From Roseomonas sp. (GTDB taxonomy: Bacteria; Pseudomonadota; Alphaproteobacteria; Acetobacterales; Acetobacteraceae): a DNA stretch of 64,000 bases. The stretch covers positions 2,702 through 66,701 of the forward strand of contig JBPCSO010000080.1 of assembly GCA_051007055.1 (NCBI GenBank). The letters run 5' to 3'. Shown one piece after another: positions 14,561-46,097 of this stretch (its first letter is position 1; the number at the start of each line of letters is the position of its first letter). Both the position numbers and the translations under genes were made by a program. Under the pieces are notes generated by a model. It did no database searches and was not told the DNA's origin. It worked only from the letters and a program-made list of their open reading frames with translations.

Positions 14561-17500
14561 GGCGCTGCCGCAGGTTCATGGGTTTCCATCAGCGCTTCGA
14601 CCGTTGCGCCCTCGGTATCATCCTTGAACAGCACGCCCGCCACACGCTGCACCAATAACGCCAAGGTCAAATCCTCGGTCACCGCAGTTAACGGCACACT
14701 GATCCCAAGGCGGCGTTCCAAAGCCATGCGCAATTCAATGCCGCCAAGCGAATCAAGCCCAAGCCCAGGAAGTGGCTGATCCACGCGCACCGCTTCGGGC
14801 GGCAGGCGCAGGATGCGCGCCATTTCTTCCCGCGCGAGCGCCAGCAATTCCGCCCGCGCTGCCTCTGGCGCCATGGCCAAAAGCCGTGCGCGCAAAGCCG
14901 CGCCATCTGTTTCCTGCGATGCCATGCGCGTGCCCAGTGCCGCATAGGCGGGCTCGGCCAAAATCGGCAGCGCCGCCTGCATCCCGCCCCAATTCATGCG
15001 CGCCAGATGAATCACGGGCGCGCCAGCGCCGATCAGCACCGGAAGGGTGGCAAGGGCTTCCTGCGCGACGATAGGCTTGGCGCCGCTCAAGCGTTCAAGT
15101 TTTTCCGCGGCGGCAGCTTCGCGCGTCAGCACGCCAGCATCAGCGATTGGCCCCCACCCGACTGCAAGCGCGGGCTTGCCTTGCGCGTGGCGCCGCCGCG
15201 CCAAGCCTTCCAAGGCGGCATTGGCGGCGACGTAATTCGCCTGGCCCGGATTACCGAAGGCCGTGGTTGCTGAAGAAAACAGCAGGAACAAATGCAAGGG
15301 ATCATCAGCCGTCAGCGCTTCCAAAGCCTCGGCCACCGCAAGCTTTGGCGCCAGCACGCGCGCGAAGCTTGCGCCATCCTGCCGCGCCGCCGCGCCATCA
15401 GCGAAGGCCGCCGCCGCTTGCACCACACCGCGCAAGGGCGCGCCTTCAGTGCGGAGCGCGGCCAGAACGCCGCCGAGTGCCACGCGGTCCGTCGCATCAC
15501 AGGCATGGGCGCTGGCGCGTGCGCCAAGGGCGGCCAAAACGCGCAAGGCTGCATCCATGCCCGGTGTGGCCGCACCGCGACGGGACAGAAGGGCAATGCG
15601 CCTTGCCCCCACCGCCGCCAGCCATTTGGCGCATTCCAAGCCAAAGCCCTGTGTGCCGCCCAGCACCACATAGGCCCCAGCTTCATCCGGTTGCCAGGAC
15701 GCGGCGCTTTTCGCGCTTGGTTCGGGTGGCCTGATCACCAGCTTGCCGATATGGGAAGATGCCTGAAGCTGACGGAAAGCAGCTTCCGCTTCACGCGCCG
15801 GGAAGGCGCGATAGGGCAAGGGCGTCAGCGCGCCATCCGCCAGCCGCGCGGCAATATCGCGCAGCAATGCCTCAGCCAGTGCAGGCCGCGCGCGCGGTAG
15901 CGCATCCGCATCCACGGCGAAATAACTGATATTGCAGCGGAAGGCGCCAAGCCCTGCGCGCCGGCCCTCGGCGAAGTCGCGCTTGCCCAATTCAATGAAG
16001 CGCCCAAACGGGGTTAGCAACGCCAGGCTTCTTTCCATGGCAAGGCCGGCCAAGGAATTCAGCACCACCTCCACCCCATCCGGCCAGACAGCACGCAGCG
16101 CATCGGCAAAGCCAGCATCGCGGCTATCCAGCACCAAATTGGCACCAAGCTGGCGCAGAAAGGCGCGCTTTTCTGGGCTGCCGGCGGTAGCCGCCACAAG
16201 GGCGCCAGCCGCCTTGGCGATTTGTAGCGCGGCCAAACCAACGCCACCCGCCCCGCCATGAATCAACACCCGTTCACCTGGGCGTAGCCGGGCGAGGGTT
16301 TCCAGCGAATAGGCAGCCGTGATGAAGGCAACCGGGATGGTCGCCGCCGCTTCCGCGCTCATGCCCGGCGGCAAGGGCTGCAGCGCCTCGGCCCGCGTCA
16401 GCGCATGCGTCGCAAAGGCCGCTGGCGCAAAGCCAAAAACCTGCGCACCGGGGGCAAGCCCAACACCCGGCCCGACTTCTTCCACAATGCCGGCGCATTC
16501 CATGCCGAGGCTCGGCCCCGCAAAGCCATCCATCAGCATGTCTTCCGGCAGCAGCCCCTGCGCCCACATCACATCGCGGAAATTCAGCCCCGTCGCGCTC
16601 ACGCGCAGCCGTACCTCGCCCGGGCCGGGTTTGGGCAAGGCGCTGATGCCGCTCCAGCCGAGGCTCGCCAATTGCCCAGGCTGGCCAATAGCCAATTGTG
16701 CCGGAAAGGCGGGCGCTGCCACGGGCAAGCCAGACCGCAGGACCGGCGTGAAACGCCCGCGCGCGGTAAGGCTGATCTCCGGCGCGTCACCGTCCCATTC
16801 GGCCAGAATGCTGAGCGCGGCTGCCTCAGGCGCCAAGCCCTGCGCAATCATCACTCGGCGCGGCTTCAGCCCGGGCATTTCATTGGTGAGCACCCGGCCA
16901 AGCCCAATCAGCCCCGCCGCGCGGGCTTCCTCGGCCTCAGCGACCATCATCAGGCTCCGGGCCACGCCATCCGCCGCCGCTGCCAGCGCGGTCATGGCCG
17001 CCAGCGCCCTGGCCGCGTCCGCCATGCCCGTCAGAGCCAGCACATCTGCGCCGCGCAAGGCTTTCGGGGGCGGGATTTCGCCCAGGTGCAAGATGGCGGG
17101 CCGCTGACCCGGCGCGTGCCGCGCGGCCAAGGCTTCCGCCAAGGGCATGGTCTCGGCATCGGTAAAGATCACACTTGGCCCAGCGCCATCCCGGGCGACC
17201 TCCGTGGGCTTCACTGAGGGGTTCTGGCCAGAGATCAACAGTGCCGGCCAGGGGGCGGATTGCAGCGCCTGAACCTCCGCACCCTGCCAGACCGCGACAC
17301 CAAGCGCGGCGCGCCAAGCGGCGGCATCGGGCAGCGCGCCATCCGGATTATCCCGCCACCAGGCGGCGTCCTGCCCTAGCGTGAAGCCCCAAAGCGCCCC
17401 AGGCGCAGGTTCGGCCAGCAGCAGCACCGCGCCTGGCGCGGCCTGGGCAGTGAGCCCTTCCAGCAGCGCCACCCCATGCCGCCCTAGCGCCGCCGGCGCC

Positions 17501-20500
17501 AAGCCCAGGATCACATCGGCCTTGTCCGCCTGGGCAGCGGTGGCGTTCAGGCTTTCCCAGCCATCCCAGCGCATGGCCACAGCTTCCGGCATCGTACCCG
17601 CAAAGCCGGCCAGGGCCTCACCAATCGCCCGATACTGGATGCGCCGACCGCTTGCGCCAAGCAGCGCCAAGGCGCCACGCGTCAGAGCCCCGCCCGCACC
17701 AAGTTCCAATACCCTGAGCGGCCTATCCTGCGGCCAAGACCCCGCCAAAGCACCAAGCCCAGCCAAGATTGGTTGAGCCAAACCCTGCATCGCCCCACCC
17801 ATGGCGGGCGGCGGTGGCGCCACAAGCGCCTCACCACGCAAGGCCGGGATCACTTGCTCGCCCGCCCGCGCCAGCCACGCCAGATCAAGCGCAAGCCCTG
17901 GTTGTTCCGCCAGCACAGCGCGCCAGATCGCTTCGGGCGGCGGCAGGGGCTGGTCTTCAATAATGCGCCAACCCTCAGCCAGGGGTTCCGCAGCGCCGGC
18001 CAGCGCCAGCATGCGCCATAGCGCAGCGCGATAGGGGCTTGGCGGCGCCGCGTTATCGCGCAGCGCCGGCAGCGCCAGGGCAGCCAGAAAGGCTTCCAAC
18101 AGCAGCGCGGCCTCGCTCAATGGTGCGGTCTGATCCTGCTTCAGAATTGCTGCAATGATGGGCTCAAGATCAAGCGATGCGGGCGCGCCGTGCAGCGGCA
18201 GGCTCGGCACCGGGTCAAGCCGGAAAGCCAAGTTTTCCAGCTTTTCCCGCCCTGGGCGCGGGACGCGCTGAAACCAGATATCCTCGATCCTGGCCACCAT
18301 GGCGCCAGCGGCATCGCGCAGCGTCAGGCTGGCGGCGAAAAGCCTGGCGCCGCGCCGACCGGGGGTGATTTCGGCGGAAGCGATGGGGGCCGCATCGCGC
18401 CGGGCGCAAAGCCGGCCAATGCGCACGGGAATAATCGCCTCATCAGCGCCCAAGCCTTGCCCGAGCATCAGGGCGAAAAGCCCCTGCAAGGCGCCATCCA
18501 GCAGGGCGGGGTGGAGCATGAAGCCGGCATGATCCGGCGCGGCTTCCGGCAGGCGCAGCCGCGCAAGTGCCACCCCGGCGGCGCCATCCACCTCGACCTG
18601 CTCCAGACTTTGAAAGGCCGGGCCGTAATCAAGGCCATGGCGCGCGGCGAAGGCCAAAACCTCGGCCCCCGGCACCTTCCGTGTCTTGGTCAGCGCGCAT
18701 GCCGGCGCGGCAGGCAGGCGCAGCAGGGCGGCCAGCCTTGCGCGGGCACAAAGGGCGAAATCATCCTCGGCCAGGCGCGGGCGGGCTTCCAGGGTGAAGC
18801 CGCCTTCGCCATCCGCCGCGAAGCGCAATTCCGCCATGCTGTCCTTGGCGAGCGAAACGGGGCGGAGAATGGCAAGATCACTGACTTCCAGAACCGGCGC
18901 ATCCGGATGGAAAAGCGCCGCGGCGGCCAAGGCGGCTTCGGCCATGGCGGCGGCGGGCAGCACGGCATCACCAAACAGCCTGTGATCGCCAAGCCAGGGC
19001 ATGGCGGTGGTATCCAGCCATTGCGTCCAGAGCCCAGGCACCGCGCCGCGCCGGAAACCCAGCAATGGATGATCCTGCGCCAAATCAGTCAGCCGCGCGC
19101 TTTCCACCGTGCGCTGGAACCAGATGGATCGGCGCGCAAACGGCGTGCGCGGCAGTGCTTTACGCTCGGCCACGCCCCGAAAGCCAGGGGCTGAACGCGG
19201 ATCAGCACCTGCGGCAATGGCGCGATCCGCAATGAGCGGAAAGGGATCGCCCGGCGGATCTTGGCGCTTCAGGCTGGAAAGTATTGCCGCTTCCACGGCT
19301 TCGGCGCGCAGCGTCTCTCGCAGATAATTCTGCAAAACCGGCGCAGGGCCGATTTCCAGGAAAAGCCGCGCACCCTGCCGCGCCGCTTCTGCCACCGCGT
19401 CCTGAAAACACACGGGTTCGCGCAGATTGCGCCACCAATACTGGCCCCCTGCTTCCGCCCCTACCAAGGGCTTGCCAGTGACCGAGGAAATCATCGGGCA
19501 AGTCCCTGGCTGCGTGACCATGCCTGCCAGATCATCCAATAGCCCAGCCCGCACCTGGTCCATCGCCGCGCTATGGAAGGCGTAGTCCAGATCAAGCGGA
19601 ATCGCGACCAGCCGCGCCGCTTCCGCTGCCTGGCACAGCCGTGCAATCGCCATCGCCGGGCCCGCGATAGTGAGCGCCGCCGGCGCATTGATTGCTGCGA
19701 TTTCAAGCCCCGGGCCGCATTCTTCCAGCATTGGCGCAATGGCTTCCGGCGTTGCGCCAATCGCCGCCATGCGCCCTGTGCCGCGCGTGGCATGCTGATG
19801 GCGGCTGCGCGCCACAATCAGCGCCGCCGCCTGATCAAGCGAGAGTATCCCCGCCGCCTGTGCCGCCGCCACTTCGCCGACCGAATGGCCGATCACCACA
19901 TCAGGCGTGATGCCTTGTTCGGCCAGCGCCGCCAAAACACCGATCTGCACCGCGAAAAGCAAAGGCTGGGCAAGATCTGTCCCCGCAAGTTGCGCTTCGC
20001 TTATACCTGCCTTGATCAGCGCGGCGGGTGAAACGCCAAGCTGTGGCGCCAGCGCGGCATCGGCGGCGAGTACACCACGGCGAAAGGCGGATGAAGCGCG
20101 AAAGGCTTCCCGCGCCATGCCCAAATGCTGGGCGCCATTACCGCTGAAGACAAATGCAGTGCCGCCGCTGACCGCGACCCCTTGCGCCGCACTCGTCTCA
20201 CGCTCCCCTGCCCCCCAGGCAGCCAGGCGCTGGGCTAGCGCCGCGCCATCGGCCCCGCGTAGCACAAGCCGATGCGGCGCCAGGTCCCGATACCGCGCCT
20301 GACCGCGCGCGAGTGCCGCAGTGCGCGCGGCATCGGCGCCCGCCAGCGCATCGCGCCATGATGCCACCGCAAGCCTGAGCGCTTCGGCAGAGCGCGCCGA
20401 GAGAATAAGCGGCGGCGCGCCCTTGGCCGCCGCAGGGCGGAGCGTGCGCGGATTTGGCGCGCGGCCCAAAATGGCTGCGGCATTGGTGCCGCCAAAGCCG

Positions 20501-21777
20501 AAAGCATTGACGCCGATCACCGCATCATCAGCAACGAAAATGCTTTTTGTTGCACGTGGAACACTCAGATTGAGATCGGTGAAATCAATCGCCGGATTGG
20601 GGTTTGCAAAATGCAGCGCCGGCGGCACGAAACCCTGTTCCAGCATCAGCATGGCCTTGACCAAACCAGCCATGCCCGCGCCGGCTTCCAAATGGCCGAT
20701 ATTCGCCTTGGCGGAACCAATCGGCAGTGGCGCGCTGCGATGGCGCGCTATCGCTTGCCCGATCGCCCAGGCCTCAGCCGGGTCACCCGCCTGGGTGCCG
20801 GTGCCATGCGCTTCAAACGCCAGAAAGCGATCCGGCTGCACCGCGGCTTTGTCCATCAGGCCCGCCAGCAATGTCGCCTGCGCATCGCGATTGGGCAGCG
20901 AAATGCCAATGGTGCGCCCGGCTGTATTGGTGCCGGTGCCAAGCAACAGGGCGCGGATTGGCTCCCCAGCGGCCTTGGCATCAGCAAGGCGGCGCAGAAT
21001 GACAACGCCCACACCTTCCGCGCGCACATAGCCATCCGCCGCCGCATCAAACACCTGGCAGCGTCCGCGTGCGGAGAGCATGCCCGCGCGGGAAAAACCG
21101 ATAAAGGCATAGGGCGAGAGCAGCAGATTGACACCCCCCACCACCGCGGCTTCCAAACCCGGATCATACGCCAAGGCGCGCGCGGCCAGATGCAGCGCGA
21201 CAAGGGAAGACGAGCAGGCAGTATCAATCGTCTGCGCACCGCCGCGCAAATCAAACACATGGCCAATGCGGTTGGACAGGATGGAAAGCGCATTGCCGGT
21301 CATGTGAAAACGATCGGCAGCCGCGGGATCATCCAAGCGCAGCTCAGCGAAATCCGTGGAAGACCCGCCGATGAAGACCGCGATATTGCGCCCAGCCAAG
21401 GCTTCCGGCCTCAGCCCCGCATCTTCAAAGGCATCGCGCGTTACTTCCAGTAGAAGGCGCTGCTGAGGATCGGCTTCCGCAACCTCACGCGGGGAAAGGC
21501 CGAAGGCTTCCGCGTCAAAGCCTTTGATATCGCCAATTGTGCCGGCAGCGAAACTATAACTCCGCCCCGCTTCGCCTGGGCGCGGATGATGCCAGCGCGC
21601 CTTTTCGAACCGGTCATCGGGCACTTCCGTCACCGCATCCACGCCTTGGCGCAGCACATCGGCAAAGCGCGCAAGATCAGGCGCACCAGGCAGCCTGGCC
21701 GCCGCCCCGATAATGGCAATCGGCTCCGGCGCAGTGGCTTTCGGGCGATAGGGGGCGCGGCGCATGGGTTCAGCCAC
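14557..21777 (-). CDS. Highly reducing type I polyketide synthase, KS-AT-DH-(degenerate MT)-ER-KR-ACP (WcbR/RkpA-like)
   Basis: KS: DTACSSS, HGTGT, HLEAG. AT: GHSVG, YAFH. DH: HRLFGDAVLP. MT remnant: VLELGAG. ER: HGGAGGVG. KR: GGTQGFG, ANYVAAN. ACP: GLDSLG. No TE domain. Start is GTG 21777 (overlapping the upstream stop) or ATG 21765. Confidence 0.93.
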   Translation of the reverse strand: MAEPMRRAPYRPKATAPEPIAIIGAAARLPGAPDLARFADVLRQGVDAVTEVPDDRFEKARWHHPRPGEAGRSYSFAAGTIGDIKGFDAEAFGLSPREVAEADPQQRLLLEVTRDAFEDAGLRPEALAGRNIAVFIGGSSTDFAELRLDDPAAADRFHMTGNALSILSNRIGHVFDLRGGAQTIDTACSSSLVALHLAARALAYDPGLEAAVVGGVNLLLSPYAFIGFSRAGMLSARGRCQVFDAAADGYVRAEGVGVVILRRLADAKAAGEPIRALLLGTGTNTAGRTIGISLPNRDAQATLLAGLMDKAAVQPDRFLAFEAHGTGTQAGDPAEAWAIGQAIARHRSAPLPIGSAKANIGHLEAGAGMAGLVKAMLMLEQGFVPPALHFANPNPAIDFTDLNLSVPRATKSIFVADDAVIGVNAFGFGGTNAAAILGRAPNPRTLRPAAAKGAPPLILSARSAEALRLAVASWRDALAGADAARTAALARGQARYRDLAPHRLVLRGADGAALAQRLAAWGAGERETSAAQGVAVSGGTAFVFSGNGAQHLGMAREAFRASSAFRRGVLAADAALAPQLGVSPAALIKAGISEAQLAGTDLAQPLLFAVQIGVLAALAEQGITPDVVIGHSVGEVAAAQAAGILSLDQAAALIVARSRHQHATRGTGRMAAIGATPEAIAPMLEECGPGLEIAAINAPAALTIAGPAMAIARLCQAAEAARLVAIPLDLDYAFHSAAMDQVRAGLLDDLAGMVTQPGTCPMISSVTGKPLVGAEAGGQYWWRNLREPVCFQDAVAEAARQGARLFLEIGPAPVLQNYLRETLRAEAVEAAILSSLKRQDPPGDPFPLIADRAIAAGADPRSAPGFRGVAERKALPRTPFARRSIWFQRTVESARLTDLAQDHPLLGFRRGAVPGLWTQWLDTTAMPWLGDHRLFGDAVLPAAAMAEAALAAAALFHPDAPVLEVSDLAILRPVSLAKDSMAELRFAADGEGGFTLEARPRLAEDDFALCARARLAALLRLPAAPACALTKTRKVPGAEVLAFAARHGLDYGPAFQSLEQVEVDGAAGVALARLRLPEAAPDHAGFMLHPALLDGALQGLFALMLGQGLGADEAIIPVRIGRLCARRDAAPIASAEITPGRRGARLFAASLTLRDAAGAMVARIEDIWFQRVPRPGREKLENLAFRLDPVPSLPLHGAPASLDLEPIIAAILKQDQTAPLSEAALLLEAFLAALALPALRDNAAPPSPYRAALWRMLALAGAAEPLAEGWRIIEDQPLPPPEAIWRAVLAEQPGLALDLAWLARAGEQVIPALRGEALVAPPPPAMGGAMQGLAQPILAGLGALAGSWPQDRPLRVLELGAGGALTRGALALLGASGRRIQYRAIGEALAGFAGTMPEAVAMRWDGWESLNATAAQADKADVILGLAPAALGRHGVALLEGLTAQAAPGAVLLLAEPAPGALWGFTLGQDAAWWRDNPDGALPDAAAWRAALGVAVWQGAEVQALQSAPWPALLISGQNPSVKPTEVARDGAGPSVIFTDAETMPLAEALAARHAPGQRPAILHLGEIPPPKALRGADVLALTGMADAARALAAMTALAAAADGVARSLMMVAEAEEARAAGLIGLGRVLTNEMPGLKPRRVMIAQGLAPEAAALSILAEWDGDAPEISLTARGRFTPVLRSGLPVAAPAFPAQLAIGQPGQLASLGWSGISALPKPGPGEVRLRVSATGLNFRDVMWAQGLLPEDMLMDGFAGPSLGMECAGIVEEVGPGVGLAPGAQVFGFAPAAFATHALTRAEALQPLPPGMSAEAAATIPVAFITAAYSLETLARLRPGERVLIHGGAGGVGLAALQIAKAAGALVAATAGSPEKRAFLRQLGANLVLDSRDAGFADALRAVWPDGVEVVLNSLAGLAMERSLALLTPFGRFIELGKRDFAEGRRAGLGAFRCNISYFAVDADALPRARPALAEALLRDIAARLADGALTPLPYRAFPAREAEAAFRQLQASSHIGKLVIRPPEPSAKSAASWQPDEAGAYVVLGGTQGFGLECAKWLAAVGARRIALLSRRGAATPGMDAALRVLAALGARASAHACDATDRVALGGVLAALRTEGAPLRGVVQAAAAFADGAAARQDGASFARVLAPKLAVAEALEALTADDPLHLFLLFSSATTAFGNPGQANYVAANAALEGLARRRHAQGKPALAVGWGPIADAGVLTREAAAAEKLERLSGAKPIVAQEALATLPVLIGAGAPVIHLARMNWGGMQAALPILAEPAYAALGTRMASQETDGAALRARLLAMAPEAARAELLALAREEMARILRLPPEAVRVDQPLPGLGLDSLGGIELRMALERRLGISVPLTAVTEDLTLALLVQRVAGVLFKDDTEGATVEALMETHEPAAAP

Positions 21778-23077
21778 GCGGCAGGCTTTGCGGCGTGAGC
21801 GCCGCCGGCACACCCCGATCAGCATGGGCAAGGGCCTGATCGGCCAAAGCGCGCGGTGCGGCGCGGGCGCAAGCTTCCAGCCAGGGGTCCACCCGCGCGA
21901 AATGGTCTTCCCAGCTTGGCACCGCCCAGGCGGAAAGCCGCGCCATTTGCGCCTGCCTCATGGGGCTTTCTGATGGTGCGTAATCCAGGATCAGGCGACG
22001 CCAGCCTGGGCCATCCAGCGGGTCCAGATATTCCGGCACAGCGCCACCTACCTCACGCAGGGCGGGCAAATCCGAACAGATCGCGGGCAAGCCAAGCGCC
22101 AGCGCCTCTGCAAGCGGCAGCCCGTAGCCTTCCGCGAAGGATGGGAACAGCAGCGCCCTGGCCCCTTGCAGCAAGCCCGCTACGGCCGCATCCGGCAGGC
22201 CCGCATATTCCACCACCTTGCCGGAAAGCGCCGGGCAGCGTTCCAACATGTCAAGGATATTCTCATTCTCCCAGCCGCGCCGGCCGATCAGGATGAGCTG
22301 CGGCGCGGCATCACCCATGGTTTCGGCCAAATCACGCCAAATATGCAAAAGCAGCAGGTGATTTTTGCGCGGTTCAATGGTGCCGAGGCAAATGAAGTAA
22401 CGCCCTGCTGGGCGCGGATAGCCGACATCAGGCGCCACGGGGTCAATGCCAAGCGGCGCGGGCAATACGGGGATCGGACCGCGCGTGCCTTCATGCGCCA
22501 GATAGGGCGCCAAGCTTGCCGCGGTGGCGGCGGAATTGACGATGATGCCATCCGCCAAACTCGTGAAGGTCTCAAGCCGGCTGAGATGCTGCCGGGTGCT
22601 GCGCGGCGGGGCATATTCCGGATGGGTGATCGGGATCAGATCATGCACCAGAGGAATGAAGCGGGCGCCTTGGCGCTTCAGCGCCAGAATGGCGCCAGGC
22701 CGATCCGCCCCGCGATGGGACACCAGTAGGTGCAGCACGGGTTCGCGGGCCGCCAGCGCCTCGCGCAATGCGCCGCGACCCAGCCCGAGCCATTGCCGAA
22801 GCTGCGCTTGCCGCGCGCGCCGCCGTGCCTCTGCCCACGCAGTGTACGCCCCCGCGGCGCCCAGCCAAAGCGTTTGAAGTGCCGCGAGCAGCGCCGCCAC
22901 AAGCCCCTGCGGCAGCGCCACCGGGGGCCGGAAAGGCCCGCTCATCACAAACGTCACGCGCGCGGGGTCCCGGGCGAGAAAATGGCGCGCATAGGCGTGC
23001 TCCACGCGATCAATACCAGTCGGCACAGGGCGCCCCGTGCCGGAAATCAGTCGCGAAATATCGAGCAAAATGTGCAA
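21770..23077 (-). CDS. Family 4 (GT-B) glycosyltransferase
   Basis: LDISRL..TGIDRVE.AY, LVHDLIP, GTIEPRKNH and PSFAEGYGLPLAEA motifs. Start TTG 23077 (AAGG upstream) is preferred; the ORF-track start at 23158 is a TTG next to a TATAAT box. Confidence 0.88.
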   Translation of the reverse strand: MHILLDISRLISGTGRPVPTGIDRVEHAYARHFLARDPARVTFVMSGPFRPPVALPQGLVAALLAALQTLWLGAAGAYTAWAEARRRARQAQLRQWLGLGRGALREALAAREPVLHLLVSHRGADRPGAILALKRQGARFIPLVHDLIPITHPEYAPPRSTRQHLSRLETFTSLADGIIVNSAATAASLAPYLAHEGTRGPIPVLPAPLGIDPVAPDVGYPRPAGRYFICLGTIEPRKNHLLLLHIWRDLAETMGDAAPQLILIGRRGWENENILDMLERCPALSGKVVEYAGLPDAAVAGLLQGARALLFPSFAEGYGLPLAEALALGLPAICSDLPALREVGGAVPEYLDPLDGPGWRRLILDYAPSESPMRQAQMARLSAWAVPSWEDHFARVDPWLEACARAAPRALADQALAHADRGVPAALTPQSLPRG

Positions 23078-33658: not shown

Positions 33659-35188
33659 ATGGGGCGGATGTGGCAAGCGCTGGCGTCGCGACAAGGCTGG
33701 CGCGCCCTGGTGACTGCCTTCGGGCTTGGCGTGCTGGCAGTATTGGCCCTGCCGCCCTTGCATGTTGTGCCCGTGCTGTTCCTGGCCATTCCAGGGCTGA
33801 TTGCGATGATTGGCGGGGCGGCCAGCTGGACCGGCGCCTTTGCGCTGGGGCTTGCCTGGGGCTTCGGTTTCTTTGCCGGTGGGCTTTACTGGATTACCTC
33901 CGCCATTCTGACGGATGTGGCGCGCTATTGGTGGCTGGTGCCGATCGCGGTGCCGGCGCTTGCGCTGCCGCTTGGGATTTTCGTAGCGGTGCCCGCGGCC
34001 ATTGCCTGGGGGGCACAGCCCGGCTTGCCGCGCGTGCTGGTTTTCGCCGGCGGCTTTGTTGGCTTTGAATTGCTGCGCGGCGAAATCCTGACCGGCTTTC
34101 CATGGAATTTGATAGGCACGGTTTGGGCCTTTGATGCGCTACCCATCCAGATGGCGGCGCTGATTGGCGTGCACGGGCTTTCGCTGATTACCCTGTTGGT
34201 GGCGGCAACGCCGCTGTTGAGCTGGCGTGGCTTTCTGGCGGGGGTGGCGACGCTGGCCTTTTGCGGCGTCTTCGGTTTTGTCCGGCTTTTGCCCGCCGAA
34301 CCCAAGCCCCAACCTGTCGGCCTTTTGATTGTGCAGGGCAATATCGCGCAGGAAGTGAAATGGCGCGAACAGGCGCGTGTGCCAATCCTGCGCCGTTATG
34401 TGGAAGCCACACGGGAAGCGGCGCTGGCCGCGCTGCGTGACCTGCCGCCTGGGCATCGGCTGGCAGTGATCTGGCCTGAAACCGCCGTGCCCTTCCTGCT
34501 GCCCAATGATCGGGATGCGCGGCAATTGGTGGCGGGCGCGCTGCCGCAGAACGCCCTGTTGCTAACGGGCACGGTACGCGGCGATTTCACGGCGGAAGGC
34601 TATGCACGCGACCTATTCAATAGCCTGGCGGTCATTGCCCCGGACACCCAAGTGGTCGCGATGGCCGATAAGGTGAATCTGGTTCCCTTTGGCGAATTCA
34701 TGCCCTTTCGGGGCTTATTGCCGATCCGGCTGGTGCAAACCACGCGCGATTTCACCGCGGCTGAAGAAAGGCGTCGGCTGGTGGCGGGCTGGCTGCCGCC
34801 CTTTGTCGCCCTGATTTGTTATGAGGTGATCTTCACCGGGCGGATTACCCCTGCCCGACGGCCCGATTGGATTGTGAATGTAACCAATGACGCCTGGTTT
34901 GGTGCAACAGCTGGCCCGTGGCAGCATCTGGCTGCCGCCCGATTGCGCGCGGTAGAAGAAGGCCTGCCGCTGGCACGTGCAGCGCAGACAGGTGTTTCGG
35001 CTGTGTTTGATTCGCGCGGGCGCTTGGTGGCGCGAAGCCCCTTGGGCGAATCTGCCATTGTCCGGGCACCTTTACCCGCGCCGCGCGCACCGACCTTCTT
35101 CGCAGATCTTGGTTTGATGATCCCCTTTGCGCTGACCATGGTTGTTTTCGCCCTAGGGTGGATTATCCCAGGTCGAAATCGCCAATAA
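33659..35188 (+). CDS. lnt: Apolipoprotein N-acyltransferase
   Basis: GFPWNL, VIWPETA, K..LVPFGE, LICYE and TNDAWFG (E-K-C triad). Confidence 0.95.
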   Translation: MGRMWQALASRQGWRALVTAFGLGVLAVLALPPLHVVPVLFLAIPGLIAMIGGAASWTGAFALGLAWGFGFFAGGLYWITSAILTDVARYWWLVPIAVPALALPLGIFVAVPAAIAWGAQPGLPRVLVFAGGFVGFELLRGEILTGFPWNLIGTVWAFDALPIQMAALIGVHGLSLITLLVAATPLLSWRGFLAGVATLAFCGVFGFVRLLPAEPKPQPVGLLIVQGNIAQEVKWREQARVPILRRYVEATREAALAALRDLPPGHRLAVIWPETAVPFLLPNDRDARQLVAGALPQNALLLTGTVRGDFTAEGYARDLFNSLAVIAPDTQVVAMADKVNLVPFGEFMPFRGLLPIRLVQTTRDFTAAEERRRLVAGWLPPFVALICYEVIFTGRITPARRPDWIVNVTNDAWFGATAGPWQHLAAARLRAVEEGLPLARAAQTGVSAVFDSRGRLVARSPLGESAIVRAPLPAPRAPTFFADLGLMIPFALTMVVFALGWIIPGRNRQ

Positions 35189-35399
35189 AATGCTGAATTT
35201 TGAGAAAAGTGAGGATAATGTTGTTTCTTTTTTGAGAATATGGAAAAACCTATAGACCTTAGCGAGCCAATTAAGGTATTCTCAACTTGTATCAATCGTT
35301 AGTGAAATCCGTGCGGTTTTGATTAATCGCAACCAATATATTCAAATGCGCCCCTGGTTACGCGTTTGAGTTGTTTTGGCGGCAAGGAAAGGGCAGGGC

Positions 35400-35876
35400 A
35401 TGAAATCGGTAGTTGCCATGAATGAGCTGGATGATATCACCCCCAAAGGTGAACGTGAACATCGGGCCAGCCCGATTGACGCCCATGTTGGGGCACGAGT
35501 TCGCCTGCGGCGCACCTTGCTCGGCATGAGCCAGGAAAAGCTCGGCGACGCCCTTGGGCTCACCTTCCAGCAAGTTCAGAAGTATGAGCGCGGGGTTAAC
35601 CGCATCGGCGCCAGCCGGCTTTTTGATCTGGCTCGGGTGCTGGATGTGCCGATTGGCTTCTTTTTCGACGATCTGCCGCCAGAGATGGGCGGCAATGCCG
35701 CAGTCCGCAGCCGCCCGGCGTTGTTCGGCTTCGCCGAAACGTCAGACGGGCTTGAGGATGAGAATATGAACAAGCGTGAGACGCTTGAATTGGTGCGCGC
35801 CTATTACCGCATCAATGAAGCTGGTGTGCGCAAGCGCGTGTTTGACCTGATCAAGAGCCTGGCGCCGACCGAATAG
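35400..35876 (+). CDS. XRE-family helix-turn-helix transcriptional regulator
   Basis: HVGARVRLRR..LGMSQEKLG..LGLTFQQVQKYERGVNRIGASRL; start is 35400 or 35418. Confidence 0.92.
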   Translation: MKSVVAMNELDDITPKGEREHRASPIDAHVGARVRLRRTLLGMSQEKLGDALGLTFQQVQKYERGVNRIGASRLFDLARVLDVPIGFFFDDLPPEMGGNAAVRSRPALFGFAETSDGLEDENMNKRETLELVRAYYRINEAGVRKRVFDLIKSLAPTE

Positions 35877-39738: not shown

Positions 39739-40618
39739 ACCGTTGTTCAATCGGCTTTGCCTGGTTGGCATTGGGCTGATCGGGTCTTCCATTGCGCGTG
39801 TCGCGCAAAAGCGCGGCGATATTGCGAAGACCATCGTGGTCACCACACGGCGGGCCGAAACACTCGCGCGCGTGCGTGAATTGGGCCTGGCGGATGTGGT
39901 GGAACCCGATGCCGCGCGCGCCGTTGAAGGCTGCGATGGTGTGATTTTCTGCATTCCTGTTGGTGCCTATCCCGATGCCATGCGCCATATCGCAGCACAT
40001 CTGGCACCGGGCGCGGTGCTGACCGATGTTGGCTCCACCAAGGGCAGCGTGGTGCGTGATCTGTCACCGCTGCTGCCAGCCGGCGTGCATCTGGTGCCAG
40101 CGCATCCCATGGCAGGGACCGAGCATTCCGGCCCCGATGCGGGTTTTCCTGAATTGTTTGAAGGCCGCTATTGCATCGTCACCCCCCTGCCCGACAGCGA
40201 TCCGGCAGCGGTTGAGAAAGTGAGAGAACTGTGGCGGCGTTGCGGTTCCATGATCGAGACCATGGACCCCATCACGCATGACAAGGTTGTCGCCATTGTC
40301 AGCCACCTGCCGCATCTGATTGCCTTCACCATTTGCGGCACGGCGGATGATCTGGCGGAAGAAACCAAGGAAGCGGTGCTGAAATTCGCGGCATCTGGCT
40401 TTCGGGATTTCACGCGCATCGCGGCTTCCGATGTTGATATGTGGCGCGATGTTTTCCTGAATAATCGCGAAGCAGTGCTTGAGATGCTGTCGCGCTTTTC
40501 AGAGGATGCGCATGCCTTTGGCCGCGCCATTCGCCGGGGAGAGGCGGGCTTCATTGAAGACCGGATCAAGCGCGGGCGAAAGATCAGGCGGAGTCTGATT
40601 GAACGGAAGCAGGCGTAA
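39731..40618 (+). CDS. tyrC: Prephenate/arogenate (cyclohexadienyl) dehydrogenase
   Basis: [32 protein letters not shown] and [12 protein letters not shown] motifs. Confidence 0.9.
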
Positions 40619-40759
40619 GCGTGGCGGCGCCAAGCGAAATTGCTTGACTTGCCGGGAATGGCGCCTGGATAGTGTTGTCCTGGAATTAATGTTGTTCTGC
40701 CATCGTGGAGAAGCGCTGGAGACATTTTCCGTGAATTGCTGATCCGGGAGAAGATCGTG

Positions 40760-41770
40760 ATGCCTGCGATACGTCCAAGCTGGCGCAATCTGGCTGCGGT
40801 TTTTGCTACCACCGCATTCCTCGCCACACCCCACTCAGCCTCAGCTCAGCCGAGCCCCGATACGATCGTTGATGCGTTTGAGGCGGTGCTGGGGCCGGTG
40901 CGCACCCATCGCCCAAGCCACCCGAAGGGCGTTTGTGCGTCTGGGTATTTTGTCGCAACCGATGAAGGCCGAAGGCTTTCTGTGGCGCCAGTCTTCAGTG
41001 GCCAACGCAATACGGCTCTGATCCGTTTTGGTGTTGCCGGGGCTAATCCCAACGCATCAGACACCGCGCGCGGCACGCGGGGCCTTTCCATCCGCTTCGA
41101 AGCGCCTTCGGGCGAATTGTTTGAAATGGCAAATATCTCCGTGCCGGTTTTCGGCTCACCCACGCCGCAAGCCCTGGTGGATGGGTTGCTATCGCGCGCC
41201 AATGACCCGGCGACAGGCCGGCCCAATCCGGAACGTGCCGCCGCCTATGCCGCCTTCGTCGCGGCCAATCCTTCTGTCGGCAATCAGGCCCGCTACCTTG
41301 CCGCCAATGCGCCGCCGGCAAGCTTCGCCTCCACACCCTATTGGGGGGTGAATACTTTCATGTTCCGTGGGCAGGATGGGCAGGTGCGCCCGGCACGCTG
41401 GGTGTTTGAACCGCGCGCGGGGGTGGAACGCCTGACAGCGGAGCAAATACAAAGCGCGGGCAACAATTTTCTGGCTGATGAGTTGCGTCGGCGTGTCGCC
41501 ACCGCGCCTGTGGAATTCGACATGGTGCTACAATTCCCGGGGCAGGGCGATGATTTGCTGAACGCGACCATCGCCTGGCCGGATGATCGGCCGCGCGCCA
41601 TTGTGGGCAGGCTGACCATCACTGAAGTTTCCGCGGACCCCGGTGGGCCCTGTGATCCGATCAGCTTCATGATCCTGGATCAGGCACCGGGGATTGAAAT
41701 GAGCGATGATCCGGTCTTGCAGGCACGCGCTGCTGCCTATGCCGTTTCGCACTCGCGGCGGACACAGTAG
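40760..41770 (+). CDS. Secreted catalase-related heme peroxidase (SrpA-like)
   Basis: Signal peptide, RPSHPKG (distal His), SDDPVLQAR..AY..S (proximal Tyr); no NADPH domain. Confidence 0.85.
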   Translation: MPAIRPSWRNLAAVFATTAFLATPHSASAQPSPDTIVDAFEAVLGPVRTHRPSHPKGVCASGYFVATDEGRRLSVAPVFSGQRNTALIRFGVAGANPNASDTARGTRGLSIRFEAPSGELFEMANISVPVFGSPTPQALVDGLLSRANDPATGRPNPERAAAYAAFVAANPSVGNQARYLAANAPPASFASTPYWGVNTFMFRGQDGQVRPARWVFEPRAGVERLTAEQIQSAGNNFLADELRRRVATAPVEFDMVLQFPGQGDDLLNATIAWPDDRPRAIVGRLTITEVSADPGGPCDPISFMILDQAPGIEMSDDPVLQARAAAYAVSHSRRTQ

Positions 41771-41795
41771 GGCGCATTGCGCGAAGGGCTGAGAT

Positions 41796-41843
41796 TTAAC
41801 CAAGATCAGCCTTCAGCACTTCCCCTGCCAGATAGAGGCTGCC
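41796..41843 (-). pseudogene. Displaced duplicate of the folC 3' end (GSLYLAGEVLKADLG*), attachment-site-like
   Basis: 41811-41843 matches 42406-42438 at 27/33 nt. All 6 differences are synonymous and the 11-aa peptide is identical. Confidence 0.85.
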
Positions 41844-42390
41844 AAGCCCGAAGCCTCCTGAAGTCCGCGTCAAACGCGGTCACTGTCAGGGGAATATCGT
41901 AGTTATTCAGCTTTAGAATATGAAAACGGTTGCGCAGTTCAGCGAAGATTAAAATTTACACGCCAGAAAATTTCTCATATCTTTCGTATATGGAATACTT
42001 TTCAAACGTCTGGCCATATTTTTCTGTGCTTTTCGGCTTCGGTCTGGGCTTCTATTCCGCTCCAAAAATTAGAAGGGCAGATCGACACTATACAAATGCA
42101 GCATCCAGACTGGACGTTTTCTCAAGTTATTAGGTCCGAAGCCGGTCGCGAAGCAATGTTTCAATGGTTATTGGCGCACCAGTGGACGGCATTCCGCTTA
42201 GAGTCTCTTCGTCAGGCGAAAGCGGGAGCAAAGGGATTAACGTTGAGCAACTATGCAGAATTAGTCGAGAAAAATGTAGCCCCCGAAGCTATGGGCGTTA
42301 TACTAAATCGGTTCATAGACCAAATGGAACCTTGGCTCGAAAAAAGACTCTCTTGAATACTCATCGCCCTAAAAAGTGGCCAAACCTAAT
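41844..42390. mobile_element. Low-GC islet (about 44% GC by hand count over 41881-42360) inserted at the folC 3' end; no integrase
   Basis: Sharp GC drop between the two folC-end direct repeats; contains one long stop-free frame. Confidence 0.65.
41862..42356 (+). pseudogene. Islet cargo: 164-codon stop-free frame, probably a 5'-truncated gene (first ATG at 42096)
   Basis: Manual reading: the frame of the 42096..42356 ORF stays open back to a TGA at 41859-41861. No recognisable motif. Confidence 0.4.
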
Positions 42391-43662
42391 TCACGCAGCG
42401 TCTACCTTCAATACTTCCCCCGCCAGATAAAGACTTCCCGCAATCAGCACCCGGCCTGGCTTGGCCTTTGCCGCGATTTTGCCAAGTGCTTCCGCAATTG
42501 TGGGGCCGGGTTCGGCGATACCGCCGCTCGCCGTGATGATGTCTTCAACACTCATCGCCAGATGCTGGCCGGGTTCGGCGACGGCGTGGATGCTGGTGGC
42601 GAAGGGCAGCAAGGGGCGGAGGAATTCGGCGCTCGCCTTGCCTTGCTTCATGCCGATGACAAGATGCAATGATTGATCGCGCCATTGCTTGAAATGCTGG
42701 GCCAGCGCCTGCCCTGCCCCGGCATTATGCCCACCATCGAGCCAGAGCGAAAAGCCCGCCGGTAACATCGCAGAAAGCCCGCCCGAAAGGCGCTGCAAGC
42801 GCGCGGGCCAAGATGCCTTGGCAATGCCCTCAGCAATCGCGGCATCACTCAGCCAAGGCAGGCCAGCAGCGCGCATGGCAGTAATGGCAATGCCGGCGTT
42901 ATCCGCCTGATGCGGCCCAATGAGCCCCGGTGGCGGGAGGCTCAGCGCGCCTCTCGCATCGCGGTAATGCAGACCCTCTGGCGTGGCCTCACAAAACCAA
43001 TCCTGCGCGCGGCGCAGCAGCGGTGCGGCGCGTTCGGCTGCCGTGGCACTGATCACGTCCAGCGCTTCCGGCGCCTGTGCACCCGTGGCGCAAGGCACAC
43101 CCGCGCGCATGATGCCGGCTTTCTCACCCGCGATCTTGCCGAGCGTATCGCCCAGAAAATCCATATGATCCATGGAAATGGAAGTAATGGCGCATGCCGC
43201 CGGGTGCGGCACGACATTGGTTGCATCCAGCCGCCCGCCCAGGCCCACTTCCAGAACCAGCAAATCAGCCGGCACGCGGCTGAACAGCACAAAGGCGGCA
43301 GCCGTCGTCACTTCAAACACCGTAATTGGCGCGCCTTCATTCACCGCTTCCACTTCTTCCAGCGTCGCGGTCAGCGCCTCATCCGTCACGTAATCGCCCG
43401 CAAGCCGGATGCGTTCATGAAAGCGCACCAGATGGGGTGACGTATAAACATGCACGCGCTGCCCCGCCGCTTCACCGATGGCGCGCAGAAAGGCGCAGGT
43501 GGAACCCTTGCCATTGGTGCCCGCCACATGGATCACGGGCGGCAGGCGCCGTTCCGGATGGCCGAGCTTGGCGAGCAAAGCCTCCATCCGGCCCAGGCTC
43601 AGATCAATAAGCTTGGGGTGGAGCGCATGGAGACGCTCCACAATCGCTTCAGCGCGGGACAA
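42391..43662 (-). CDS. folC: Folylpolyglutamate synthase/dihydrofolate synthase
   Basis: HVAGTNGKGS, YTSPHL.RF.ERI, LEVGLGGRLDATN, WPARLQ, DGGHN and GSLYLAGE motifs; TTG start. Confidence 0.96.
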   Translation of the reverse strand: MSRAEAIVERLHALHPKLIDLSLGRMEALLAKLGHPERRLPPVIHVAGTNGKGSTCAFLRAIGEAAGQRVHVYTSPHLVRFHERIRLAGDYVTDEALTATLEEVEAVNEGAPITVFEVTTAAAFVLFSRVPADLLVLEVGLGGRLDATNVVPHPAACAITSISMDHMDFLGDTLGKIAGEKAGIMRAGVPCATGAQAPEALDVISATAAERAAPLLRRAQDWFCEATPEGLHYRDARGALSLPPPGLIGPHQADNAGIAITAMRAAGLPWLSDAAIAEGIAKASWPARLQRLSGGLSAMLPAGFSLWLDGGHNAGAGQALAQHFKQWRDQSLHLVIGMKQGKASAEFLRPLLPFATSIHAVAEPGQHLAMSVEDIITASGGIAEPGPTIAEALGKIAAKAKPGRVLIAGSLYLAGEVLKVDAA

Positions 43663-43667
43663 GGGAG

Positions 43668-44561
43668 TTATTCGGCAGGTGCGGTGGCGGCTTCCGCTTC
43701 TTCATCACTGCGTTCAAGCAGCGGCTGACGCAGCAACGAAATCACGCGTGCCAGTGTTTCGCGCATCTCTCCACGCTTCACCACCATGTCCAGAATGCCG
43801 TGTTCCAGCAGGTATTCCGCCCGCTGGAAGCCTTCCGGCAATTTTTCGCGCACGGTTTGTTCAATCACCCGCGCGCCGGCGAACCCGATCATCGCACCTG
43901 GCTCGGCGATTTGAATATCGCCCAGCATGGCGAAGCTGGCGGTCACACCGCCCGTGGTCGGGTCACACAGCACGGTGATGAAGGGCAGGCCCGCTTCCTT
44001 CACCATGCGCGTTGCGATCACCGTGCGCGGCATTTGCATCAGGCTGACCGCACCTTCCTGCATGCGCGCCCCGCCCGAGGCCGTGAAGACAATCAGCGGT
44101 GCATCCTGCAGCACGGCAAGCTTGGCGGCGGTGACAATCGCCTCACCCACGCCAGCACCCATGGACCCGCCCATGAAGGCGAATTCAAAGGCGGCAACAA
44201 CCGCGCGTTGGCCATTGATGGTGCCATGCGCCACGGCCACGGCATCATCCATGCTGGTCTTGGTTTGGCTTTCGCGCAGCCGGTCCGCATAGCGGCGCTG
44301 ATCACGAAAGCGCAGCGGATCAGCGGGCGCCTTGGGCAATTCAATGCGGGAAAAGCCCGCATCCAAAGTGGCTTCCAACCGCTGCGCGGCACCGAGGCGC
44401 ATGTGATGCCCGCAATGGGAGCATACGCGCAGCGCCCGTTCCAGATCCCGATGAAAGATCATCTGCTGGCAGGAAGGGCAATTGTGCCAGAGGTTTTCCG
44501 GCGCTTCCCGCTTGAACAGACCCTGGATCTTCGGCAGGGCCCAATCGCTGATCCAGTTCAT
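43668..44561 (-). CDS. accD: Acetyl-CoA carboxylase carboxyltransferase beta subunit
   Basis: Zn finger CPSC..CSHC, FMGGSMG, SGGARMQEG and PTTGGVTASFAMLGD motifs. Confidence 0.97.
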   Translation of the reverse strand: MNWISDWALPKIQGLFKREAPENLWHNCPSCQQMIFHRDLERALRVCSHCGHHMRLGAAQRLEATLDAGFSRIELPKAPADPLRFRDQRRYADRLRESQTKTSMDDAVAVAHGTINGQRAVVAAFEFAFMGGSMGAGVGEAIVTAAKLAVLQDAPLIVFTASGGARMQEGAVSLMQMPRTVIATRMVKEAGLPFITVLCDPTTGGVTASFAMLGDIQIAEPGAMIGFAGARVIEQTVREKLPEGFQRAEYLLEHGILDMVVKRGEMRETLARVISLLRQPLLERSDEEAEAATAPAE

Positions 44562-44653
44562 GGCATATCCTTAAACTTGCGCGCACCGGGCGCCTTACGG
44601 GGGGGGAATAGCGCAGATGGGTGGCTTGGGGAAAGCCAGCGCCGGTCCTGGCG

Positions 44654-44821
44654 CTATTCCCCTGGCTTTTCCGGGGTGTCTGGCTTGGGGGGCGCTTCCG
44701 CCGCATCGCGCGCCCGGGCCTGAGCCTTGCGCCGGCGGAGATTCTCCCGGAGTGCCGCGGCCAGCCTTTCCTCCCGCAGGGTGGGGGCCGATTTGGGAGG
44801 GGTTTTGCTTTCCTTTTCCAT
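44654..44821 (-). CDS. 55-aa basic small protein (below the ORF-track cutoff)
   Basis: Manual translation: MEKESKTPPKSAPTLREERLAAALRENLRRRKAQARARDAAEAPPKPDTPEKPGE*. The RLAAALRENLRRRKAQAR core resembles, from memory, small hypothetical alphaproteobacterial proteins found near tRNA-Thr. Confidence 0.7.
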   Translation of the reverse strand: MEKESKTPPKSAPTLREERLAAALRENLRRRKAQARARDAAEAPPKPDTPEKPGE

Positions 44822-44914
44822 GCGGGCGTGAAGTGGCAGGGCCAGCGCCCAGCATCAAGGGGTTGCGGGAAGCCCCAGGCTGGGGCTAGAGGATGCCCGT
44901 CCGCCAGGGCCTTG

Positions 44915-44989
<75 letters not shown>

Positions 44990-45023
44990 CCCGCGCCTGC
45001 GACGCGCTGTATTCGGGCGTTGA

Positions 45024-46097
45024 TCACCCACCAGCCGCCTCCGCCTTCCCGCGGAACAAATCAAAAAATCCCGTCACCACATCGGCAATGCTGCGTCCGC
45101 GCCCGGTATCTATCGAAACCGTCGCGGTCACGCCGGCGCGCAAGGGGGGCTCGCCCGCATGGGGTTCAAGGCCGATGCGCACCGGCAGGCGCTGCACCAC
45201 CTTCACCCAATTGCCTGAGGCATTTTGCGGCGGCAGGATCGCGAATTCCGCCCCTGTTGCCGGGCTGATGCTTTCCACCACGCCCTTCCAGGTCACTTTC
45301 GGGTAGATATCCAGCACCACATCCACGCGCTGGCCAATGGCCACATGGGTCAGGGTGGTTTCCTTCAAATTTGCATCCACCCAGGGGCGGCGATCCGAAA
45401 CCAAGGCAAAAATCGGGGTCGCGGCGCGCAATTGCTCACCCACTTGCAGGCGCAGATTCACCACGGTGCCGCTTGTCGGCGCCTTGATTTCCGTGCGCGC
45501 CAGATCAAGCGCGGCGCGGTCGCGTTCGGCGATTTTCTCGCGCACTTGTGGGTGTTCATCCACCGGCAAATCGGCGTCACCCTTCAGCGTGGTCAGCAGG
45601 CGCACAAGTCTTTGGCGCAGCACATTCATCCGGTCCTGCGCCACCTGCGCATCAACCTGGGTTTCTTCCATGCGCGCTGTGGGGGCTATGCCGCGGCTTG
45701 CCAATTCTTCCTGCCGGCGGGCCTGACGCAGAAGGAAAGCAACGCGCTTTTCAAGCTCAGCCATTTCGCCCTGGGTTTCTTGATAGGTGGCGCGGGCAAG
45801 TTCCACCTGTGTGCGCGCGGCGTCCAATTCAGCTTCCGCCTTTTCTAGCGCCAGGCGGAAGGGGGTGGGGTCCAGGCGCAGCAGCACCGCGCCGGCGGCG
45901 ACATGCGCATGGTCGCGCACCAATACTTCTGTCACGCGGCCGGCGACTTCCGGGGCAATCTGCACGATGTCGGCGCGGACATAGGCGTTTTCGGTGGTGA
46001 TGTAGCGCCCGCCGGTCAGCCAAAAAGCGCCTGCCACCAGCAGTGCCAGGGCGGGCACCCCCACCAGTAGCACAAGGCGCAGAAGCCCGCCCCGCAT
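45024..46097 (-). CDS. HlyD/EmrA family membrane fusion protein
   Basis: TENAYV..D...IAPEV.G, lipoyl-like and coiled-coil regions, FAILPPQNASGNWVKVVQR.PVRI. Start is uncertain (46097 or 46208). Confidence 0.92.
   Translation of the reverse strand: MRGGLLRLVLLVGVPALALLVAGAFWLTGGRYITTENAYVRADIVQIAPEVAGRVTEVLVRDHAHVAAGAVLLRLDPTPFRLALEKAEAELDAARTQVELARATYQETQGEMAELEKRVAFLLRQARRQEELASRGIAPTARMEETQVDAQVAQDRMNVLRQRLVRLLTTLKGDADLPVDEHPQVREKIAERDRAALDLARTEIKAPTSGTVVNLRLQVGEQLRAATPIFALVSDRRPWVDANLKETTLTHVAIGQRVDVVLDIYPKVTWKGVVESISPATGAEFAILPPQNASGNWVKVVQRLPVRIGLEPHAGEPPLRAGVTATVSIDTGRGRSIADVVTGFFDLFRGKAEAAGG

Follow-up and report, generated by a model that had tools for sequence, protein, structure and literature searches.

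In a freshwater member of the Acetobacteraceae, the last codons of folC, the gene for dihydrofolate synthase / folylpolyglutamate synthase, carry an insertion that supplied a substitute gene end and displaced the original one. The locus lies in a 64-kb stretch of Roseomonas sp. DNA (NCBI GenBank assembly GCA_051007055.1, contig JBPCSO010000080.1, positions 2,702 to 66,701 of the forward strand), referred to below as the window, in whose coordinates all positions are given unless a locus is named. The incoming end now terminates folC, and the resident end, ...LKADLG followed by a stop codon, persists 595 bp downstream as a non-functional remnant next to a catalase-like gene. The inserted segment, called the islet here, spans 41845..42390 (546 bp) and is missing from relatives with an empty site. 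Recombination through short homology with DNA of a sister strain is the explanation that we tentatively favour over integrase-mediated integration.

Although folC is essential, it withstands an insertion in its coding end, since a substitute end came with the incoming DNA; the case is a clean and well-controlled one. Related folC loci were compared from genomes (80 loci) and metagenomes (80 loci); L-numbers denote fetched related loci and X-numbers metagenome runs. The closest species-representative genome by FolC is that of Roseomonas sp. HF4 (76% identity), and metagenomes contain a clade of relatives with FolC identities of 88–94%. The window sequence itself occurs in lake, freshwater and sediment metagenome runs. 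The source organism is an uncultured freshwater member of the Acetobacteraceae.

Two alleles of the folC end

folC (42391..43662, minus strand) is intact and encodes 423 amino acids with the Pfam domains Mur_ligase_M and Mur_ligase_C, the same length as in the relatives that are 88–94% identical. The protein terminates in GSLYLAGEVLKVDAA before the stop codon (further writings of the same end are ...IAGSLYLAGEVLKVDAA and ...RVLIAGSLYLAGEVLKVDAA, each followed by the stop). The end in current use, copy A (42391..42438, minus strand), consists of a 33-nt core encoding GSLYLAGEVLK, then VDAA and a stop codon. Copy B (41797..41844, minus strand; GSLYLAGEVLKADLG, then the stop) is the original end, displaced and non-functional, which aligns together with its flank to the empty sites of L081 and L093. 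Each copy is 48 nt long with four codons and a stop after the core; the two lie on the same strand and in frame, offset by exactly 595 nt with copy B downstream. Their cores are identical at 27/33 positions, all six differences are synonymous, and the longest identical blocks are only 8 nt. The pair is the top-ranked direct repeat of the region in a direct-repeat search (34 nt, 82%). In 100 dinucleotide-preserving shuffles of 40500–44000, the best direct 33-mer match within 1.5 kb has a mean of 22.3 (sd 0.67) and a maximum of 24 of 33 positions, which confirms the duplicated folC end that a sequence-only reading of this DNA had described, with the same spacing, identity and six synonymous differences.

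That reading had also taken the AT-shifted codons of copy A as a "recoded" replacement end and the GC-rich codons of copy B as host-like, a contrast that proves not to be diagnostic. The core of copy A is 31–32/33 identical to the lone folC end of the islet-free L092 and L090, and its codons GGA AGT CTT ... GTA TTG are present in the single folC end of the islet-free L092, L090 and L094. The codons GGC AGC ... GTG CTG are found in other single-copy relatives. The codon argument fails because every one of the six differences is a standing synonymous polymorphism of the clade, seen in single-copy relatives. Copies A and B are thus two natural alleles of the clade's folC end, neither of them recoded, and this also accounts for the fact that all differences between them are synonymous. 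The all-synonymous divergence in turn implies that each copy has a history as a functional folC end, in a genome other than that of its counterpart.

The same observations bear on an in-situ tandem duplication, in which the folC end would have been copied within the host, with the intervening DNA arising or arriving later and no exchange between genomes. Such an event yields two same-strand copies of the same 48 nt. It is nonetheless very improbable: a copy that became a pseudogene at the duplication would not be expected to show six differences that are all synonymous and each a clade allele, the segment separating the copies has 45% GC and encodes a gene with homologues elsewhere, and a bare duplication occurs in no relative examined.

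The four residues after the core vary widely. The VDAA tail of copy A is homologous to ADEA, the tail of folC in L096, and ADEA also terminates folC in L085. The last four codons (42391–42405 in the window, and their counterparts in relatives) are fast-evolving and GSLYLAGEVLK is invariant; at least 15 tails occur among the 88–94% relatives (ADLG, SDLG, DDLG, GDLG, ADLV, AELA, ADTP, VDTP, ANTP, EYAP, ADAL, ANAL, ANAR, ADEA and VDAA). The variable tails were considered as a sign of many integrations, an idea that was rejected: the tails are homologous and merely fast-evolving. In catalase-bearing relatives (folC stop regions of L081–L108), the tail and stop codon pair with the next bases as GCTGATC TCGGTTAGG GATCAGC; the resulting hairpin overlaps the folC stop codon and is degraded in the displaced copy of the window.

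Empty sites in the closest relatives

The gene order shared by the window and its relatives is accD, folC, the catalase-like gene (convergent with folC), PDH and hisC. In the window, the catalase-related gene (40736..41770, plus strand; Pfam Catalase, syntenic in relatives) is the host flank of the empty site. The same order without the islet is found in L081–L084, L092, L093, L094, L104, L105, L108 and others. Islet-free relatives have one folC end, ...LKADLG (or SDLG, DDLG or GDLG as the last four residues), running directly into the catalase-like gene, and the distance from the folC stop to the catalase stop at catalase-bearing empty sites is 25–55 bp. It had been predicted beforehand that relatives without the islet would end in LKADLG and run straight into the flank, and this is the arrangement found in L081, L092, L093, L094, L104, L105 and L108. 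Islet-free and islet-bearing forms coexist in runs X3 and X25.

The most direct comparison is with L093 (94% nucleotide identity to the window), whose single folC end (nt 2535–2568) aligns by BLAST to both window copies; folC continues the upstream alignment, and the catalase gene the downstream one. The segment between copies A and B is an insertion into the folC 3' end that brought a substitute end and displaced the original. This part of the sequence-only reading stands on the empty sites and on the single copy of L093 that aligns to both; of its further claims, recoding fails and descent from an integrase-bearing element is not supported. A second folC end is present at just one of the 80 genome and 80 metagenome loci, L096, which carries the same islet, and the larger islands or prophages with an integrase that had been expected at folC did not turn up among them.

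The window backbone is closest to that of catalase-bearing, islet-free relatives on both sides of the islet: compared with L092/L093, amino acid identities are 99% for accD, 99% for hisC, 96% for PDH and 93–96% for the catalase-like gene. This match disfavours the reverse polarity, in which the recipient would have had folC and the gene carried by the islet, and the catalase-like gene would have been imported with a 48-nt stub of a donor folC end. The catalase-like gene is polymorphic in the clade by its presence or absence between folC and PDH, and L178, described below, represents the cargo-bearing, catalase-less haplotype that the reverse event would start from. The window genes on both sides are, however, closest to L092/L093 and not to L178, and these nearest relatives own the catalase gene without the islet, so that the reverse polarity is improbable.

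The folC–PDH interval (40619–42390 in the window) is also a small hotspot of gain and loss in this abundant freshwater clade. At least six states are seen across the window, L081, L085, L086, L089, L090, L091, L097, L107 and L178: 1 nt, a 57-nt hairpin spacer, about 100 nt, a catalase-related gene, a cargo gene, cargo plus catalase, and an insertion sequence (IS). The IS stands immediately after folC in L085 and has an IS5/IS1182-like transposase N-terminus.

The islet and its cargo gene

The islet has a GC content of 45.1% over its 546 bp (the sequence-only reading had estimated about 44%), compared with 63.7% for folC and 62.3% for the catalase-like gene, and is one of two patches below 50% GC in the window. 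The second patch (35051–35475) is an ordinary AT-rich intergenic region. L096 (JGI contig Ga0315899_10075826) has the same islet in a version that is about 94% identical and 98 nt longer, with its second folC end 693 nt downstream of the first. The islet is also present in metagenome runs X3, X5, X6 and X24, whose contigs have the long form with the 98 extra nucleotides.

The long form reveals the content of the islet. It carries an intact open reading frame (ORF; L096:1319–1783) of 154 amino acids with an N-terminal hydrophobic segment, a predicted membrane anchor. The window ORFs 41930–42133 and 42096–42356 merge into this ORF once the 98 nt of L096 are added. The N-terminal fragment of the cargo gene (41990..42133, plus strand) encodes MEYFSNVWPYFSVLFGFGLGFYSA, the predicted membrane anchor, and compared with the L096 ORF its frame shifts after about 42057. 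The junction of the 98-nt deletion maps, by alignment to L096, to 42054..42062. The C-terminal fragment (42096..42356, plus strand), an 86-amino-acid ORF, holds the conserved domain of a small uncharacterised family, as its homologues indicate. The deletion frameshifts the cargo, which is therefore a pseudogene in the window; contigs of X1 and X2, which represent the window's own strain (99–100% identity), span and confirm the deleted form. A promoter-like site, TTTACA-17-TATCTT (41955..41983, plus strand), lies just 5' of the cargo ATG and matches the consensus without being enriched over shuffles. In all, the islet comprises a single complete gene, preceded by about 145 nt and followed by 34 nt. 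It had been described as a reduced remnant; a whole gene together with the DNA upstream of it is no chance stump of something larger.

Homologues of the 86-amino-acid ORF were not found by a word-indexed search, and a full HMMER scan places the cargo protein in a small family. Its members include P0136 (the intact islet form), P0121 and P0137 (both 60% identical) and, at 27–40% identity, proteins of Vibrio parahaemolyticus, Photobacterium and low-GC metagenome contigs. Pfam, PHROG and PADLOC scans of the cargo protein and islet gave no match, nor did tblastn of the protein in phages and plasmids. The AlphaFold model is all-helical and of low confidence (pLDDT 62.6). The ratio of nonsynonymous to synonymous divergence (dN/dS) of the cargo is about 0.2 between the window and L096, and between L096 and L178 its dN is 0.27 with saturated dS (the dS of folC is 0.53); the cargo is therefore a real gene under purifying selection.

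A sister lineage has the cargo without the duplication. L178 and L179 carry folC, a cargo homologue and PDH, with neither the catalase gene nor a duplicated folC end nor the dispersed repeat described in the next section. They are 90% identical to the window in FolC and 95% in PDH and HisC; the cargo homologue is 60% identical, and folC ends in ADTVERADA before the stop. The cargo thus sits directly behind folC in a donor-like arrangement, but as a 60%-identical allele and without the repeat.

More distant members of the cargo family lie in other surroundings. In L180:1–5856 (IMG/VR uncultivated virus genome 2681812989_000001), a 38%-identical homologue is located between the Gabija gene GajA and a Tmn (KAP NTPase) gene, which puts the family in a defence-island-like setting in a gammaproteobacterium. 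In two metagenome contigs of 36% GC (L176:1–4170 and L177:1–3631), a distant homologue heads a run of small, unrelated same-strand genes that includes an HNH-like gene (duplicated in L177), a GFA gene and an acetyltransferase gene. The layout of this run is cassette-array-like; clear attC sites were not seen in L176 and L177.

The distal junction and a dispersed repeat

At its distal end the islet contains part of a dispersed repeat, about 100 nt long when complete. The truncated copy (41839..41902) overlaps the first 5–6 nt of copy B and was recognised by its recurrence in metagenome contigs. The islet retains the first ~63 nt of the repeat (41839–41902 in the window, 1871–1935 in L096), with a sharp boundary at 41902. 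This segment recurs at 85–95% identity in several other contigs of nine metagenome runs, at up to 8–11 times the depth of the islet, in many cases on short unitigs of high depth whose flanks vary on either side. The repeat is thus found in many contexts, in metagenomes of lakes and sediments. The repeat is non-coding, its copies differ by insertions and deletions, and its conserved blocks are …TACGATATTCCCCTGACAGTGACCGCG… and …TTGGCAGTTTTTGTCTGGCTGGTCACCTCCGTGTTGC. It is an uncharacterised element at the edge of the islet: the repeat has no match in Rfam, phages, plasmids or viral contigs, blastn of the distal islet end against plasmids and phages returned nothing, and an Rfam scan of 40500–45500 found tRNA-Thr only.

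Read in the sense of folC, full copies of the repeat continue from TTGGCAG into TTTTTGTCTGGCTGGTCACC (also written, after the same TTGGCAG, as TTTTTGTCTGGCTGGTCACCTCCGTGTTGC). In the window and in L096 the repeat ends at GGCAG, and the displaced folC core comes next (GGCAG, then CCTCTATCTGGCAGG). The repeat continuation, read from 30-nt loose-end consensus sequences only, is identical to the folC core at 15/20 positions. Because the repeat stops at GGCAG and its continuation resembles the folC core to this extent, the islet ends in a truncated repeat fused to folC. One junction at short microhomology, truncating a donor sequence, is a feature of homology-facilitated illegitimate recombination that the islet shares.

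Three other accounts of the distal end were considered. A hairpin there has z = -4 in the window and is missing in L096, hence not conserved, and it was set aside. The folC-like sequence beside other repeat copies could have been the displaced folC end of another taxon; this was rejected, for the sequence has insertions and deletions and recurs as part of the repeat. Derivation of the islet end from the 57-nt folC–PDH spacer and PDH stop of catalase-less relatives is a weak lead, significant in one of eight comparisons.

How the islet arrived

Within one lineage of the freshwater Acetobacteraceae clade, the last 16 codons of folC received a foreign low-GC segment of 0.55–0.65 kb by recombination. 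The segment is made up of a folC end, with the 33-nt core, a tail of four codons and the stop, of the convergent gene for the 154-residue membrane protein with its upstream region, and of the first ~63 nt of the repeat. In the mechanism that we favour, its donor would have been a sister strain with the cargo gene already directly behind folC, as in L178, and its recipient a catalase-type chromosome. The proximal crossover would fall in ordinary folC homology and the distal join at the point of likeness between the dispersed repeat (GGCAGTTTTTGTCTGGCTGG) and the folC core (GGCAGCCTCTATCTGGCAGG). A join at that point would have truncated the repeat and kept the recipient's own folC end, making a dedicated integrase unnecessary. 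Decay followed: the cargo was broken by the 98-bp deletion in the window, and in L096 the stop codon of the displaced copy was lost (TAA to GAA). The mechanism draws support from the empty sites in the closest relatives and the single L093 end that matches both copies, from the finding that both copies are natural clade alleles, from a backbone that on both sides is that of the catalase-bearing, islet-free L092/L093, from the donor-like order of L178/L179, from the 15/20 similarity of repeat and folC core at the shared GGCAG, and from the failure to find a recombinase.

Several points weigh against it. The structure is also precisely what a site-specific element in a gene 3' end leaves. The exact donor haplotype, with a folC end in VDAA or ADEA, this cargo allele and the full repeat, was not found among the related loci. 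The two cargo alleles at the same site are 60% identical with saturated dS, against a folC dS of 0.53, and repeated targeted integration could explain them equally well. The dispersed repeat could be a recombination site. Lastly, the likeness of the islet end to the folC–PDH spacer of catalase-less relatives reaches significance in just 1/8 comparisons.

Site-specific integration is the strongest competitor and somewhat less probable than the sister-strain exchange. An element with an attP that mimics the folC 3' end would have been integrated by a tyrosine or serine recombinase, and the islet would be either its deletion remnant, similar to a cis-mobilizable element (CIME), or a cassette that is non-autonomous by nature and depends for its movement on a recombinase encoded elsewhere. 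In favour of this explanation are the imperfect direct repeats of the target 3' end on either side of the insert, a gene put back in frame with its length unchanged, and the existence of empty sites, together with a pair of strongly diverged cargo alleles that occupy one site in sister lineages and a conserved multi-copy sequence adjoining the distal repeat. On the other hand, the "replacement" core is a normal host allele, the two copies share identical blocks of at most 8 nt, L178 has the cargo gene without a duplicated end, and full copies of the distal repeat are non-coding and vary in their flanks on either side, unlike att sites confined to one target. Divergence between the window and L096 can be read either way: dS is 0.14 in the islet and 0.42 in the flanks, with an abrupt change at both borders, which favours site-specific integration; the same contrast can also arise when recombination with the islet-free majority affects the flanks and spares the islet. 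The window and L096 have one flank haplotype in common.

Searches for the machinery of such an element were negative. The sequence-only reading had seen in the islet the remnant of an integrase-bearing element that used folC as attB; a recombinase was found neither in the islet (Pfam, PHROG and PADLOC) nor among the 20 largest ORFs of the surrounding 36 kb, from 23.9 to 60.5 kb of the window, all of which are housekeeping genes, and neither an integrase nor a larger element was seen next to folC at about 170 related loci. No integrative and conjugative element (ICE), integrative and mobilizable element (IME) or prophage at folC was found in the fetched loci or in viral contigs, and no phage, plasmid or viral-contig relative of the islet was found. 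Scanning viral contigs for the stretch coding for GSLYLAGEVLK and for three parts of the dispersed repeat returned nothing. A joint across the islet, which would mark excision, is not seen in X1–X4, X24 and X25, in assembled contigs, which drop rare forms; the empty-site joints that do occur in metagenome runs belong to other strains.

Two further classes of mobile DNA were rejected. The islet ends carry no terminal inverted repeats, no transposase was found, and the flanking repeat is 33–48 nt long and imperfect rather than a short perfect target duplication, unlike an insertion sequence, a miniature inverted-repeat transposable element or a transposon. An integron gene cassette does not fit either, as no R'' (RYYYAAC) or R' (GTTRRRY) cores were found by eye in the islet ends or the repeat; downstream of the cargo ORF only 34 nt remain within the islet.

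A broader idea is that the islet belongs to an undescribed system as a cassette of one gene, not autonomous in itself; a recombinase encoded elsewhere would recognise the ~100-nt repeat, whose second half is folC-core-like, and would repeatedly place small accessory genes at the folC 3' end, and perhaps at other sites, in freshwater Acetobacteraceae. We consider this unlikely.

Relation to known systems

Elements that occupy the 3' ends of protein-coding genes and carry a substitute end include e14 and phage 21 (icd of E. coli) and ICESt1/ICESt3 (fda), and streptococcal ICEs and IMEs integrate in rpsI, rpmG and rplL (PMC7563491). As with e14 at icd and ICESt3 at fda, the islet lies in the last codons of a housekeeping gene, the incoming sequence completes the gene, the original end is displaced and relatives have empty sites. 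Unlike them, the islet encodes neither an integrase nor an excisionase nor transfer functions, a full-length relative did not turn up at folC, its repeats are only 82% identical with identical blocks of 8 nt, and the insert measures 0.55–0.65 kb with a single gene. The islet works structurally like a gene-3'-end element, but a recombinase or a relative of full length, the one defining feature open to testing, is what it lacks. A literature search brought up no description of folC as attachment site or integration target, and folC appears not to be a described insertion target.

CIMEs and microCIMEs are decayed derivatives of ICEs and IMEs that keep attL and attR and have lost the recombination and transfer genes; microCIMEs measure 130–220 bp and classical CIMEs 1.2–13 kb (PMC6323972, PMC7563491). 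The islet resembles them in being flanked by target 3'-end repeats and in carrying cargo without mobility genes, and its size falls between the two groups. It differs in that there is no partner element at the folC site, that it holds one complete gene and not a fragment, that an ICE or IME parent was not found, and that its repeats are only candidate att sites.

The sister-strain exchange finds its closest parallel in the uptake of foreign DNA. In homology-facilitated illegitimate recombination, known from Acinetobacter and pneumococcus, one homologous anchor is combined with one microhomology join. The islet likewise has a side of long homology (folC), a short-patch join (GGCAG, 15/20), a retained recipient stub and no recombinase gene. 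Its donor, for its part, was not found among the related loci. The locus also resembles flexible or replacement genomic islets, as the folC–PDH interval is a fixed locus with at least six states and deeply diverged cargo alleles; it differs in that the exchange reached into the coding end of folC and left a duplicated stub.

The islet is a small, decayed, one-off scar of a familiar kind. It also cautions against a common inference: when a gene end is duplicated beside a low-GC insert, an integrase-bearing element is usually assumed to have left the scar. In this case, strain-to-strain recombination at short homology fits at least as well.

Elsewhere in the window, ARAGORN reports a 'tRNA-???' with a four-base anticodon at 17574–17666. 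It is probably a false positive because it lies inside a 2424-amino-acid ORF (14557–21831) on the same strand.

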